From an uncultured Opitutia bacterium (lineage in GTDB: Bacteria; Verrucomicrobiota; Verrucomicrobiia; Opitutales; Opitutaceae): a stretch of 64,000 nt of DNA. Position numbers: made by a program. Of this stretch, positions 39,001 to 48,000 are shown piece after piece (position 1 is the stretch's first letter; every line of letters begins with the position of its first letter). Where the stretch lies: contig CAIMAQ010000111.1 of the NCBI GenBank assembly GCA_903839035.1, positions 10,968-74,967 on the forward strand, in the 5' to 3' direction.

Positions 39001-42000
39001 AACCGCCAGGTCATGTCCAATGCGCTCGGCAACGCGAACGGCGCGGCGGAGCGGACTTCGGCCAATCCGGCGCGGCTGGCCGCGCCCGAACGGGCGCAGT
39101 TCCTGACGGAACTTCGGACCCAACGGGACACCCTGACCATGATGCGCGCCGCCGTCAACGGCCGCACCGGCGACGACGGCGTGCGGGCAAGGGTCTCGGC
39201 CGCTCTCAACCGCCAGCTCGGCCAGATCGAGGGCAAGCTGAAGAGCCCGGCGTTCGGCGACCTGATGCGCAAGGAGATGGAGACCGCGGCCGCCGCGCGC
39301 CTGAAGGCCCCGGACGGCACGCGGCCGGCAGAACATTTCAACAACCTCATGAACGACCCGACGATCCGGGGTAGCCTGCGGGCCTACCTGACCTCGACGC
39401 TCCAGGTTGAAAATCTGGATTTTTACGATGCGATCAGGACCTTCCAATCCGAACTCGGACGTACGCCTCAGACTAACACCCCGGCGCAGCTGCTCGCCTT
39501 CGCGGCGGAAATCGACGGGCGGTTCATCGGCTCAGGCTCGGAGAAGGACATCAACTTGGCGGCGGCGCTGGTAAATCAGTTCGAGCAACAGGTACTGACC
39601 ATGCAGCTGGCCTCACCCCAGCAACTTGTCACCCTTCTCTCCGCCTCCGGTCCGGGCTCGTTCCAGGATACCGTCCAGAAAGCCGCGGACGAAGTGAGCA
39701 AGCTGCTGCGGACGAACTCGGGGGCCAAATTCACGCAGTTTTTCGCCACCCAGCAAGCCAGTGCGCAGATCAATGCTGGCATCGAACGCAATCTCGGGAG
39801 CCACTTGACTCAGGCGCTGACCGAAGATGCCCAGAAGCCGCTGGGCGCCCAGCCCACCGGACCCAAGTTCCCGGAGGACCCTGCAGCGGAGACCCGGTTC
39901 AAGGGACTAGCGGCGAACTTCTCCGACCTGTTCATGGCCGACTTTCTGCGCAACGGCGTCACCGTCGGCGATCGGGCCATTTCCGCCCCCGGCAACGGCG
40001 ACGGCCCCCGGGCGCTCGCCCGACTGCAGGAACTCGTCGATGCCTTCGGCGGAGACGCCGCCCTCGCCGGCAACGTGACGCGGATGCTCGGGCAGAACAT
40101 CTCCGGCGCGCTCCAGCAGGGACTGTATCTGGACCAGTTCGGGCAGGGCTTGGTCGAGAAGTACAATGCGGACCTGCCCGACCAGGACACCCAGACGGTG
40201 GCACTGTCCATCTCCGGCCAGGCCGACGGCACGTATCGCGCCACCTACGCGTTCTCGCAGCAGACGCAGAAAAACACCGAACTGCGCGCCACACTGGGGA
40301 TGACAATCAACCCGCTCACTCTCGACCCAGGCACCCCGCCCACCATCCGCCTCGATCGCTTCGACTACCGGATCGGTGCTGCAACGCCGGAGCCGACTCC
40401 CGCCGCCGCGTCCGCGCCCCGGGCCCTCACCGGGCTGGAACAGTTGATCCAAGCCCGGGCGGCCCTCCGCCGAGACGGGGAAAATGAACCCGTGAATCCG
40501 GACGCCCCTCCGCCCGCCGCCGCGCAGCCCGGCCCTCGGCCGCTGGTGTCCACTCCGGTCGCCCCCGGCGATGACCCCCTCACCCGCAGGACGTGACGCC
40601 CGAGGCAGTTTCAATCCACGCCCCACCGTTCATGAGCAACCCTCCCTACGCCGCACTGATCAAGGACTTCCTGGCCACCGGAGTCATCGAACCGGCTCCA
40701 GCTCTCCCCGAAAATCCCGGGCTGCTGGAGTTCAAGGCCGGAGAGTTCACCTGTTCGGTTTTCCCGCTGGAGGGCGAGCTGCAGGTGGTCATTCAGTCCG
40801 AAGTGATGCGTCTTGACCAACTCACGGTCGAGCAGGCCCAGGCCGCGAGCATGCTCCTCCACGGGCTCAACTGGGCCGCACGGGTGGGCAACGGCATCAT
40901 GGCCATGATCGATGCCCACGGCACCGTGGTCGTCGCCAAGACCATCGAGATTCAGCGCCTCGACGGCAAGCGTCTGGGCGAGGAGATGGCCGCCGTGCTC
41001 GAAGCGGCCGAGAATCTTGCCCCCGTCGTGAAAGGATCGCCCCGCCCGCCGCATTCATCCGCTAGTCCACCCGCAGCTTCCCCCTTGGATATCCACCGCT
41101 ATGCCTGAAATTACCCTGCGCCCAGATACTTATCAGATTGCGGCCGACAAGACGGTGGCCGCGTCCTCCAGTCTGGATGCCGGGGCCGCGCAGGACCAGC
41201 TGAAGGATATTCGCGGCAGCCTGATGACAGCCCAGAATACGCTGCGCAGCGGATACCTCAGCCTCCAGAGTTCAAGCGACGGGCAGTTGACCATGGAAAG
41301 CCGGAGCAGGCTCAATCCCTTCGGGGATAAACAGGGGGCGGCAACCTTCGTGCGCGAACTCATCAACAAGGCCTACGGTGATCAGATTGGCCGAATGGAT
41401 GTCGTTTCCAAGGGCCATCTCCACGACGCCATCGAAAACTATCTTCAAGCGAAGGGCGGGAAATTGGGCACCGCGAGTTTTGTGAAGCTGCTCGACACCT
41501 TGGAATCCGCCTCGGCGGGGGCCACCGCCTGGGGAGCAGCGCCCGCGCGCGGATCGATCGCCCTTGAGGGGTCGCGCCTCAATTTTAGCGATCAGGCACT
41601 CTCCCGGCGGGAGCAGTCGGGTCTCAATACCTACCAAAACAACCCGAAAGCCTACCAGATCACCGAGAGGCCGACGGCCAGCCCGGTACTCCAATCCGGG
41701 CAACCTGACCACGCGGCCGGCGCGCGTTTTCCCCAGTCACTCAACCACGCGGTCGGGAGCGCCGCCTGGCTGCACCAGTCCGCGCTCAGCAACCCCTCCT
41801 CCGCCCTTTCGCCGTGGCGCCGGTCGGTCGAAATGAACCAGCTGGCAACCCTCGCGGGGACCCCCGTGGCCAATCCGAACGACATCCAGGCGGAAAACGG
41901 GAAAACCATCGCTCGCCTGGACGCATTGATTCTCGCCGAGATTCCCGGCCTGCCCCCGGGTACGCCGGGCGGCCTGGCCGCACTCGACAGCCTTCCGCCC

Positions 42001-45000: not shown

Positions 45001-48000
45001 GCGGAAAATCGGACCAACCACAATTTGTTGCCCGAAAATCAAAGGCGGACGGGCGAAGACCAAAATTATCAAAAGACTTTCTACGCCGCCGTGAATGACA
45101 TCTACAGTAACCCCCTGAATGTCATCAGAGTAAACGGCCTGCTGGGTTCGGCCGGCCGGGCGGGTCTGGCAGATGCGAGGACTCAGCAAAGGGCGGCGCA
45201 GGCAGGAAACAACTGAAAGACCCGACCTTAATATTCCGCGTAGTGGCGCTGTTTCCTCGGAACAGTGGCGCCGTTCAGAGCGCACGCGGCCAAACCCTGG
45301 TGCGGCTACAGCTCCACCCGCGCAGCTAGCGCATCACCAGCACTCCAATGCCAATTACCAACGCCGCCTCCCCACTGCAACCGGTGCAGCCTGTCTCCAC
45401 CGAACCGCTCCTACCGGCTGGCAGCAACCCGGTCGCCCTGACAGAAGGACGCACCGTCGCCCAGGGAACGCCGGCCCAGCCACCCCAGAATGTTCGCCAA
45501 GAAGGCCCCCAAGGAGCCAACCGAGCCCTCCGCAATGAGGACCCACAACGCAACGACTCTGGGTCCGTACTGGCAAACTTGGAAACCGACGCCCGCGCGC
45601 TCCGGACAGGCCTCACGGCGGCAGGGGTGCGCCCAACACCGCAGCAGGCGAACCAGCTCCTCAACCAAGTCACGCTCGCACAGCAAAACCTCAACCGGCT
45701 CAGCAAGCTCGACCAGAGCACCCTCAGCCCGGCTGTTCGCGAGCTGACTAATAATTTGACCGAACTGGTTTCAGCTAACACGCGAGTCCTGCGAGACCTG
45801 AACGTGGCGGCCTTGATGACCGGCGCCCGCGCGCTCCGGACCGGCCTCGCGGCGGGAGGGGTGCCCCCGACACCGCAGCAGGCGAACCAACTGCTCAACC
45901 AAGTCACGGTCGCACGGCAAAACATCAACCGGCTCTTTACCGAAGGCGCCGGCCTTGGCGGGGCTGACCAGGTCCGGCAGGCCCTCGGCGAGACCCGGGA
46001 CGGCGATCTGGCCAACCTGACCAGCAAGCTCGACCTGCGCATCAGCCCGGCTGATCGCGCGCTGGCCATGGAATTGACCGACTTGGTTTCAGCGAACCTG
46101 CGAGTCCTGAACCAAGCGGTCGAGACGACCCCCAGAAGCCAAGGCGCGGGCGTCGCGGGAGGCTATCAGGGAGGAACGCAGGTGCGGTTGTTTTCTCAGG
46201 GAGATTCAAGCCACACCCTCGACACCGCCGTAAACAAGTTTCATGCGCACGTAACGAGCCTGATTCCCCATGGCCTGTTGGCGAGCGACGGAAACCGCAA
46301 TCCGCGTGGGCCCGAGGCGGCAAAAGAGATCAACCAGCTGGTCTGGGGGTTCAAGGACATGCTGCGCAACGACCCCGACGTGGGGATGCTGATTGGGAGC
46401 GGGGTTGATCTTGTGGCCCGCCCACCTGACCAACCAAAGACTTTCCTGGACAAAATCAGCGAAGCGTTTCGCCGGTTGACAGGGCGCACAGATGCCGGGC
46501 CGGTTCCGGCCCAAGTCAGCAATCCCCGCGAAGCGTTCCTGAATGGCTTCGTCGCCCAGTTGGCCTTGGGACCCGGGGAACGCGCGACCGTCCGAGACCT
46601 ACTGGAGGACGCGCTCAACGCCAGTTTGCCTTCTGCCGAAACCGTCAAGATTGGAGCTAAAATCACCGCGGGCGGCGGCGGCATCCTTTTTGCCGCAACG
46701 TTTAACGGGGCAGAAGTTGTAGCTAAACAAACCTTTGCTACCGTGCTGGGGGACGATGGCGCTGAGTTAGACGCGATCCAAGAAACGGCACTCCAGGGTC
46801 GCCTGCAAGCTGACCCTAATATTCCGAAAGTGATCGGTATATTCGAGCGCCACGGCGATCGCTTCATCGTGATGGAAAAAGTGCCCGGACCTCCTCAAAG
46901 TACATTTTTCGATTCCGATCTCGGAGGGGGCCACTCGTTACCGCCCAATGAACGAATGCAAGTGGCGCTCCATTTGTTTGGAGGTGTCACCCGAGCCTTG
47001 GAGACAATGCATGGGCATGACATGGTCCATCTCGACCTCAAACCGGCAAATACGATGATCGACCGCAACACGCTCGAAGCCCGCCTGATCGATTTTGGAT
47101 CAGCAAGGCCCCCGTCCGACCAGCCCACCAAAGTAATTGGAACAGCTGCCTATATGGCGCCGGAAATAACGCGGGCCGAAGATCAAGTGGCAGCAGTGCA
47201 CACGGGTAGCGACATCTGGTCGATGGGCGTTAGTTTGGTCCAAAACCTTGGCATACCTTTGTTCCAAAACGTCATAGACAGAGTGGTCACGGAAGGCGGC
47301 GATGTGAACGTGGAACTTATTAATGCAATCAGCCAGGGGGCCTTGCCCTTTGAGTTAAATGATCCGACCTGGCTGGCACAACCGCCGGGGGTTCGAGACC
47401 TGATTCTGCACTGTTTACATCCCGAGCCCAACGGCCGCCCGACCGCGGCGCAAATGGTGCAGGCGATGAACGGCGAGATGGTGACCGCCGCGCCTCCGGG
47501 CGGCATGGGCCTCAAGGCTGCTCAAGTGGTCGCACTCAATGTGCTCAACCCGGCCAGCGGCCAGCTGGCAGCGGGCCGCGAAATCTTGGCCCGACCGGGA
47601 ATCTTGCCTTCATGAATCTGACAAAATTGCTCGGTACGTTCTGCAAACACAACGGGCTCGGCCCTCTGGTCTCCGATGGGACCGGTCTGTATCGGCTCGT
47701 TTTCGACGGTCGCTGGTCGGTCGATATTCAGGAGCAACACGAAAAAAGCCCCTGCTGCATCCTCAGCTGCGTGGTCGGACCTATTTCGGCCACCGCCAGC
47801 CCGGCCGTGCTGCGCCACTGTCTCGGCGCCAATCTTTTTGCCCGCCGCCTCAACGACGCCTTTGTCGCCCTCGACACCGGCCGCGATGAACTCGTCGTGC
47901 TCAGCCGGCACCCTCTCACGGGCCTCAACGAGGCGGGACTCGAAATCGTCCTGCGCGACTTTGTGGATCAGGTGGAATACTGGAACGACTTCCTGCTCGC

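Follow-up and report, generated by a model that had tools for sequence, protein, structure and literature searches.

We analysed a 64,000-nucleotide stretch of DNA (the window) from an uncultured Opitutia bacterium of the Verrucomicrobiota (assembly GCA_903839035.1, contig CAIMAQ010000111.1, positions 10,968 to 74,967, forward strand), with attention to one gene predicted to encode a type III secretion effector that carries an ABC1/UbiB-like atypical kinase domain. The open reading frame (ORF) of this effector candidate runs from 41101 to 45216 on the forward strand, starts with ATG and specifies a product of 1371 amino acids (aa) plus a stop codon. The identical 1371-aa product was called in 10 cluster members, and orthologs with 98%, 94% and 65% identity were found in freshwater-lake metagenome-assembled genomes (MAGs) labelled Opitutae/Opitutus, Verrucomicrobiota. 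An upstream ORF (40593..41108) terminates with TGA at 41106-41108 and overlaps the effector ATG at 41101 by 8 nt ATGCCTGA. The coordinates and the overlap are as given in a reading of the DNA that preceded this analysis (the original prediction).

The upstream ORF, which had been described as CesT-like, matched the Pfam CesT profile with 22.8 bits (E 1e-4) against a cut-off of 22, and this identity was upheld, albeit narrowly. In a profile-profile comparison with six other CesT proteins using hhalign, it aligned in register over 113 columns (E 2e-4, probability 47%). As called mechanically, the ORF begins with a GTG at 40593; its likely true start is the ATG at 40632, because identity to the chaperone of a homolog, P0018, begins at Met14. 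This homolog (locus L008, 961 aa) is 42% identical to the effector candidate in the shared parts, and directly upstream of it lies a gene for a 155-aa, weakly CesT-like protein to which the window chaperone is 63% identical over 137 aa. The effector candidate is therefore preceded by what appears to be a dedicated, adjacent class-I chaperone gene. A scan for promoters and terminators over 36.5-48.5 kb yielded nothing exceeding shuffled expectation. The features of the locus are listed in Table 1.

The ABC1/UbiB-like domain

The Pfam ABC1 profile (PF03109), with which the original prediction was to be checked, matched aa 791-1035 of the effector candidate with E 5.6e-15 (55.6 bits against a curated cut-off of 22.9), covering profile positions 38-242 of 244. 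The Pkinase profile gave no match to this protein at E<=1 (the neighbouring protein encoded at 45348-47615 scored 114 bits), and the APH profile scored 19.2 bits, below its cut-off of 23.2. All of the signature strings originally quoted were located at their places, i.e., KGAGPLLQKYLQQ at aa 723-735 (nt 43267-43305), GAASIAQAF at aa 792-800, VVVKLLRPG at aa 817-825, FFHGDLHGGN at aa 969-978 and MIDFGNA at aa 1001-1007 (nt 44101-44121). In a direct alignment with canonical UbiB, KFGQ corresponds to KYLQ in the effector candidate, LAAASIAQVH to LGAASIAQAF, VVVKVLRPG to VVVKLLRPG, DELDLMREAAN to DEMLMKKEHAN, FFHADMHPGN to FFHGDLHGGN and VDFG to IDFG. According to this alignment, the residues expected for Mg-ATP binding and phosphoryl transfer, K820, E862/E868, D973, N978 and D1003, are all present.

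The proposed KxGQ region stood in part. K731 and Q734 are kept, but the Gly of this motif, which is invariant in the ABC1/UbiB superfamily, is replaced by Leu. Among 149 representative relatives, over which all motif counts were taken, the third position was L in 123, M in 15, I in 4, F in 4, V in 2 and K in 1, and in none was it G. Canonical UbiB-type matches showed K[FL]GQ in eight of 11 cases, with the pattern unmatched in the other three. Loss of the Gly marks a distinct subfamily and does not exclude the protein from the ABC1/UbiB superfamily.

Several properties distinguish the effector candidate from a housekeeping UbiB. Its scores against the NCBIfam UbiB equivalogs TIGR01982 and NF003404 were 52.2 bits (cut-off 487.55) and 24.9 bits (cut-off 667), respectively. 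A hydropathy scan of the 1371 aa revealed no transmembrane helix, including at the C-terminus; the highest 19-residue Kyte-Doolittle mean was 1.75, inside a predicted buried C-lobe helix at aa 1017. UbiB proteins of the E. coli type have about 500-550 aa and C-terminal membrane-spanning helices, and the effector candidate has neither this size nor these helices. A subfamily profile gave approximately 400 bits to its own members and 60-88 bits to canonical UbiB. Since the equivalog cut-offs were missed, transmembrane helices were absent and the length was 2.5 times that of a normal UbiB, the effector candidate is, by these sequence measures, apparently no UbiB ortholog; the possibility of a housekeeping inner-membrane protein, which had been named as one that would overturn the original prediction, is thus at odds with what was found.

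Predicted structure

An AlphaFold2 (AF2) model of aa 660-1075, made with a 20-sequence alignment of relatives, had a pLDDT of 84.8 and a pTM of 0.80. When this core model was compared with the PDB using Foldseek, the 12 best matches were all UbiB-family structures (COQ8A, MSMEG_1954 and Rv3197). The COQ8A structures 5i35, 7udq, 7udp and 4ped matched with E-values of 5e-9 to 2e-6 and TM-scores of 0.50-0.56, 5i35 being the best match of all (E 5e-9). Ordinary protein kinases came next after a gap, with E ~1e-3 and TM-scores of 0.2-0.3. In a library of viral predicted structures, ABC1 proteins of giant viruses ranked highest, among them mimivirus L702a with E 2.7e-15 and a TM-score of 0.67 of the query.

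A second AF2 model, covering aa 556-1371, had a pLDDT of 76.3 and showed aa 556-659 as confident helices packed on the core. With these residues included, the COQ8A match extended to 430 columns with a TM-score of 0.62-0.64 normalised to the target. The models have a UbiB-type fold that includes the N-terminal helical domain, the top 11-12 PDB matches being COQ8A, MSMEG_1954 or Rv3197, and the structural check that had been asked of the original prediction came out in its favour. A PI3-kinase-like reading of the extended model was rejected, as such matches had E ~3e-4 or weaker, a root-mean-square deviation of approximately 24 A and a TM-score of 0.15. Sequence searches of PDB chains, whether with the single protein or with a 5-sequence profile, gave no UbiB match, only noise at E ~0.5, such that fold comparison alone connected the domain to COQ8A in the PDB. 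By profile and predicted structure, the domain belongs to the ABC1/UbiB superfamily.

Architecture of the effector candidate

Outside the kinase-like core, the protein is modular (Table 1). No Sec-type hydrophobic segment was seen in the N-terminus in the hydropathy scan. The domain at aa 34-190 has many invariant columns and no Pfam match. The 365-aa spacer that follows (aa 191-555) is retained in L001 and in the ortholog P0002, and missing from the 94%-identical ortholog P0005 (L002, 1024 aa) and from the P0003 group; it is therefore apparently dispensable. Its loss constitutes a large in-frame indel between closely related strains (window 41671-42765 versus L002:10570-10628). A Wolfebacteria match to 52 spacer residues (L004) was rejected as meaningless, given that it lies in a low-complexity region and reached E 4e-5 among candidates only.

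The C-terminal region is 51-54% identical in L003 and L005. Its aa 1235-1299 match aa 724-793 of P0018, a stretch that comes directly after the kinase core in shorter relatives. In the aa 556-1371 model, pLDDT stayed below 50 over aa 1205-1325 and reached 74-89 over aa 1325-1365. Terminal C-lobe helices at aa 1262-1300, expected from the P0018 alignment, were unconfirmed, the AF2 pLDDT being below 50 there.

Table 1. Position and supporting evidence of features in the window.
Feature	Position (nt)	Strand	Evidence or remarks
Injectisome cluster: HrpJ/SctW, SctV, SctC, SctD, SctJ, SctL, SctN, SctO, SctP, SctQ, SctR, SctT, SctU	2685..21623	+	Pfam
TPR class-II chaperone, SseC-like and SctB-like translocon proteins	28752..31908	+	TPR_3/TPR_19; SseC 2.8e-9
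CesT and 1025-aa RGS protein	32135-32596; 32621-35698	+	CesT 1.6e-9; RGS 8.2e-14
DUF3891 protein, among the effector pairs	35739-36680	+	Pfam 1.5e-36
CesT and 1046-aa RGS protein	36946-37431; 37456-40596	+	CesT 9.2e-8; RGS 4.2e-9
CesT-like class-I type III chaperone (predicted), ~158 aa	40632..41108	+	Pfam CesT; hhalign; 63%-identical counterpart at P0018
Effector candidate, whole ORF	41101..45216	+	ORF call; Opitutae MAG orthologs 98% and 94% identical
aa 1-33, variable N-terminal end; presumed to contain the secretion signal and the beginning of the chaperone-binding region	41101..41199	+	Unconserved versus P0002 and P0003
aa 34-190, conserved N-terminal domain limited to a narrow family	41200..41670	+	66% to P0002, 51% to P0018
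aa 191-555, acidic Ala/Leu-rich spacer	41671..42765	+	Net charge -17; indel between near-identical strains
aa 556-659, helical N-terminal extension packing on the kinase-like core	42766..43077	+	pLDDT mostly 78-96; 67% to P0002, 36% to P0018
aa 660-1075, UbiB/ABC1-like atypical kinase-fold core with KxGQ-type helical domain	43078..44325	+	Pfam ABC1; AF2; Foldseek; motif alignment
K731-Y-L-Q734, variant KxGQ, Gly to Leu	43291..43302	+	Aligns to KFGQ; K and Q invariant in family alignment
G792-AASIAQ798, Ala-rich loop replacing the Gly-rich loop	43474..43494	+	Aligns to LAAASIAQ; 144/149 relatives
K820, ATP-anchoring Lys in VVVKLLRPG	43558..43560	+	Invariant in two family alignments; aligns to UbiB VVVKVLRPG
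E862...E868, two invariant alpha-C region Glu (DEMLMKKEHAN)	43684..43704	+	Invariant in family alignment; aligns to DELDLMREAAN
H971-G-D973-L-H-G-G-N978, catalytic loop	44011..44034	+	H[GA]D.H.GN in 148/149 relatives; canonical HADxHPGN
I1002-D1003-F-G-N-A, metal-binding DFG motif	44104..44121	+	D, G and N invariant in family alignment; 136/149 relatives
aa 1076-1371, C-terminal region	44326..45213	+	Family-specific insert, then aa 1235-1299 segment, then conserved tail aa ~1325-1365
755-aa Ser/Thr kinase, eukaryote-type domain C-terminal	45348-47615	+	Pkinase 9.2e-33; weak likeness to LegK1 and XopAU models
CesT after the Ser/Thr kinase, overlapping its stop by 4 nt	47612-48109	+	CesT 3.9e-15
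Beta-class carbonic anhydrase, among the effector pairs	48200-48868	+	Pro_CA 9.4e-39

Chaperone and N-terminus in a related island

The 60%-identical ortholog P0002 lies in an island (L005) with CesT, RGS, IpgD and phospholipase-like genes. Its first ~90 residues differ from those of the effector candidate; residues 24-89 of P0002 are instead 48% identical (E 4e-15) to residues 24-89 of the 1046-aa RGS protein of the window. Correspondingly, the ORF that precedes P0002 shares 62% identity with the CesT protein (36946-37431) whose gene precedes that of the same RGS protein. The site of this terminal reassortment is L005:9490-14404 versus window 36946-37650. Terminal reassortment is known among type III effectors, and the comparison indicates that an N-terminal module and its matching chaperone have moved together onto the UbiB-like body in the P0002 lineage. 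Since such a co-swap would otherwise be hard to explain, the small ORF is probably a secretion chaperone that acts on the N-terminus. An RGS gene is also present in the related island L005/L006.

The type III secretion island

The ORF lies in a type III setting. A complete injectisome and a translocon lie upstream, and the UbiB-like gene is the third in a row of CesT-effector pairs. Pfam matches of the injectisome proteins comprised FHIPEP (SctV, 4.8e-234), Secretin, Yop-YscD, YscJ_FliF, T3SS_SCTL and ATP-synt_ab with T3SS_ATPase_C, as well as YscO, HpaP, FliMN_C, FliP, Bac_export_1, Bac_export_2 and HrpJ. The SctB2 match of the SctB-like translocator was weak (18 bits against a cut-off of 26.5). 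Because the neighbouring cargos carry eukaryote-type RGS and Pkinase domains, their sequences suggest a eukaryotic target cell.

Other genes of the island deserve mention. The two RGS proteins of approximately 1000 aa are putative type III effectors against host heterotrimeric G-protein signalling. Three very large ORFs on the forward strand, i.e., 22165-25146, 25552-28707 and 50641-55440 (993, 1051 and 1599 aa, respectively), have no Pfam match or matches of repeat type only (SWM_repeat, with fn3/MBG just below their cut-offs); two of them sit between SctU and the translocon chaperone. Beside the HrpJ-type gatekeeper, a 244-aa ORF (3478-4212, forward strand) scored 21.4 bits against the CesT cut-off of 22 in its C-terminal half, and may encode a gatekeeper chaperone.

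A wider subfamily of large proteins

An exhaustive HMMER search with aa 172-1371 over 1.84 billion representatives identified 658 proteins at E<=1e-3, with 456 representative clusters at E<=1e-10. The best 150 of the 658 were all large (395-2653 aa, median 1454), and in most of them the domain was internal. A word-indexed search returned three full-length relatives and, with the domain profile, 13 matches that were mostly canonical UbiB. Source names went no further than 'hypothetical protein', 'AarF/UbiB family protein' or 'phosphotransferase', and the named sources were MAGs of Pseudomonadota, Betaproteobacteria and Lachnospiraceae, all members being metagenomic. A tblastn search with the domain against 72,556 plasmids gave no match.

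In a closer branch of the subfamily, identity was 31-39% and contig GC content 0.42-0.63, with members of related clusters named as Pseudomonadota/Betaproteobacteria MAGs. CesT genes adjoin relatives at four loci (L010, L012, L051 and L073). One relative, P0192, is two genes away from an IpgD-family gene, and another, P0140, is followed by a CesT gene. The 111-kb contig Ga0222712_10000108 (63% GC) has the order SctU, a 1048-aa relative, a 300-aa ORF, IpgD, a two-component pair, a 1061-aa relative and CesT (5e-16). Two paralogous UbiB-like proteins of approximately 1050 aa accordingly flank the IpgD-family gene on this contig (L063:2565-10945 and L012:4528-8184), and the order UbiB-like gene, ~300-aa ORF and IpgD was seen again in L009. 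In a rough count, made with a home-made CesT profile and phmmer queries, a type III-linked gene was present along with the relative in 18 of 38 higher-GC loci versus three of 49 low-GC loci.

The low-GC branch consists of rumen and gut contigs encoding proteins of 1500-2650 aa, which are flanked by GNAT acetyltransferase genes and sometimes occur as tandem paralogs. These giants (L011:7058-16151; L017-L057) share the subfamily domain with KxLQ and HGDLHAGN, and one representative comes from a Lachnospiraceae MAG. The original prediction had regarded an ABC1 fold within a giant protein as unusual. This view needs refining, as the protein is no one-off: it is one of many members of an uncharacterised subfamily whose proteins are large and multidomain. 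The subfamily appears to be defined by KxLQ and HGDLHxGN, with a part of it seemingly recruited as type III cargo.

Discussion

The explanation that we favour overall, and consider a probable one, is that the gene encodes a chaperone-coupled type III effector with a UbiB-type, ATP-driven action on a host membrane lipid. Translation of the effector would be coupled to that of its own CesT-type chaperone, which would bind the N-terminal part of the effector. The injectisome would then carry the effector into the cell of a eukaryotic host, probably a protist living in fresh water. There, the working part would be the UbiB/ABC1-type atypical kinase-fold domain (aa ~556-1075) together with C-terminal elements, driving with ATP a reaction on a hydrophobic ligand of host membranes; it could extract or relocate a lipid such as a quinone, or phosphorylate a lipid. 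We infer that the protein is translocated and acts as an ATPase or kinase, and likewise its lipid substrate and its host. Judged separately, the domain is very likely to be an active UbiB-type nucleotide-using enzyme, and the effector candidate is likely to be a type III substrate; the odds that it acts on a lipid and not on a protein, a question addressed by analogy, are about even.

A lipid-directed action is favoured because of the biochemistry of COQ8/UbiB, by analogy. Proteins of this kind are ATPases that respond to anionic membranes and phenolic lipids and act on prenyl-quinone intermediates. The ATPase activity of COQ8 is stimulated by cardiolipin membranes and phenols, the Gln of its KxGQ motif holds a candidate water nucleophile and its KxGQ helices bind membrane (10.1101/149823). 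COQ8 has further been described as chaperoning coenzyme Q intermediates via ATP-gated conformational change and extraction (10.64898/2026.02.03.703536). By the same analogy, classical protein phosphorylation seems less likely than an ATP-driven action on lipid. The recurrent IpgD-type phosphoinositide phosphatase neighbours fit a lipid-directed role, as circumstantial evidence. A more specific version, which we regard as quite unlikely in its entirety, is that the protein is the first example of an injected UbiB-type ATPase that binds anionic organelle membranes via its KxGQ-type helices and extracts, relocates or phosphorylates a host isoprenoid quinone or lipid at the expense of ATP. If this were true, host coenzyme Q/lipid homeostasis would be manipulated (respiration, membrane antioxidant defence or phagosome identity), and the pairing with IpgD-type genes in other lineages would represent a shared lipid-directed strategy.

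A number of observations weigh against an injected, lipid-directed UbiB-type enzyme. The match of the presumed chaperone to CesT is itself marginal, in both the Pfam and the hhalign comparison. The first 50 aa of the effector candidate are rich in Ala, Ser and Thr, but include acidic residues at positions 3 (E3) and 9 (D9). The failure of PDB sequence searches to find COQ8A points to the far divergence of the domain. The Gly of KxGQ is replaced subfamily-wide, mostly by Leu, and the catalytic loop reads HGD instead of HAD; because of these two changes, the chemistry may differ from that of COQ8. The large low-GC branch has almost no type III neighbours, which argues that the domain is not exclusive to type III substrates. 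Every member is known from metagenome-assembled sequence only. Finally, at least one plant member of the family, AtABC1K6, is reported to be a genuine Mn-dependent protein kinase, which may leave room for a protein substrate (PMC8956952).

This last observation bears on the main rival explanation, an unlikely one in our assessment, according to which the protein is injected and its UbiB-like domain is a true protein kinase or another ATP-using modifier (AMPylation or glutamylation) of a host protein. Most known effector kinases act on proteins, and all canonical kinase catalytic residues are present in the domain. The subfamily is, moreover, altered at just the KxGQ Gly and the HAD/HGD position, and mutations in the KxGQ domain of COQ8 shift its activity from ATPase to autophosphorylation (10.1101/149823). 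The predicted structure nonetheless keeps the full UbiB architecture, including the N-terminal helical domain that covers the substrate cleft in COQ8A; matches to ordinary protein-kinase structures had E-values at least 100-fold higher and low TM-scores, and the Pkinase and APH profiles gave nothing above threshold.

Were the protein not injected at all, it could regulate the secretion system from the cytoplasm or serve as a divergent factor in quinone/lipid homeostasis, and the upstream ORF would be no secretion chaperone. Members of the UbiB family usually have housekeeping roles, the upstream ORF barely passes the CesT cut-off, and the related low-GC giant proteins, likely of Firmicutes, cannot be type III substrates; a UbiB homolog of Legionella has also been classed as a non-effector (PMC9758233). 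We nevertheless give this explanation little credence. The gene sits within a series of chaperone-cargo pairs with eukaryote-specific cargo domains, the N-terminus and chaperone were swapped jointly in P0002, and adjacency to IpgD, CesT and SctU recurs in unrelated contigs. In addition, the protein is without the transmembrane helices or equivalog score of a true UbiB, and its size and modular, indel-prone build are typical of effectors. Least credible of all is an inactive scaffold (pseudokinase) effector whose UbiB fold would serve only for binding a nucleotide or a ligand in the host. Loss of the KxGQ Gly speaks for it, as does the fact that many effector 'kinases' prove non-canonical. Across the 149 representatives, however, which are 30-40% identical, there is little or no variation in the Lys, the two Glu, the Asp and Asn of the catalytic loop and the Asp of DFG, a conservation that indicates selection for catalysis.

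The effector candidate differs in several respects from the systems that it resembles. With COQ8A/ADCK3, Coq8p and bacterial UbiB it shares the atypical kinase-like fold, the N-terminal helical (KxGQ) domain, the GAASIAQ Ala-rich loop, VVVKxLRPG, the two alpha-C Glu, the HxDxHxGN catalytic loop and DFG. Identity to COQ8A/UbiB in structural alignments is, however, about 14-16%, and the effector candidate has KYLQ for KxGQ and HGD for HAD, no transmembrane anchor and no mitochondrial or inner-membrane context. Its domain forms part of a modular protein of 1371 aa that has an apparently chaperone-dependent N-terminal module, and its gene lies in a type III effector island rather than with quinone genes. 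Rv3197 (MABP-1) and MSMEG_1954, which were in the top 12 structural matches (E 8.5e-7 to 1e-5), have the same fold class, but are stand-alone cytoplasmic proteins of ~400-450 aa with no secretion context and TM-scores of 0.34-0.46 of the query. The giant-virus ABC1 proteins, e.g., mimivirus L702a, have the same fold and are carried by an agent acting inside the eukaryotic cell; they are 12-17% identical, viral-encoded and not secreted.

The effector kinases of type III and type IV systems are likewise kinase-fold enzymes delivered to the host, with the type III ones chaperone-paired and encoded near secretion genes. Known kinase-fold effectors include YpkA/YopO, SteC, XopAU and LegK (eukaryote-type), NleH/OspG (RIO-like), HopBF1 and the Legionella atypical lipid kinases LepB and MavQ. 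To our knowledge, none of these uses the UbiB/ABC1 branch. The window itself holds a canonical example of an effector kinase, i.e., the 755-aa Pkinase protein with its CesT, immediately downstream of the UbiB-like gene. A survey of the Legionella pan-kinome lists the UbiB homolog as a non-effector (PMC9758233). No effector of this type was described in the literature that we searched for ABC1, UbiB or AarF together with effector or type III, coverage of subscription papers being incomplete. The protein is very probably an injected effector, and one of a kind for which we found no earlier description.

The UbiB/ABC1 family is ancient and has human members that cause disease; whether its proteins work as ATPases, lipid chaperones or kinases is still debated. 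Recruitment of its fold as an effector would surprise specialists and, if confirmed, would mean that a bacterial effector directed at the host has been made out of a coenzyme-Q/lipid-handling enzyme. It would also reveal a large uncharacterised subfamily of the size found here. The anchor-free domain, together with its natural short variant, would be convenient, soluble material for the biochemistry of the UbiB active site. For the organisms themselves, confirmation would imply that uncultured freshwater Verrucomicrobia possess rich, eukaryote-directed type III arsenals, comprising RGS proteins and kinases in the window and IpgD-type phosphatases in the related island, and hence that they engage in unrecognised interactions with protists.

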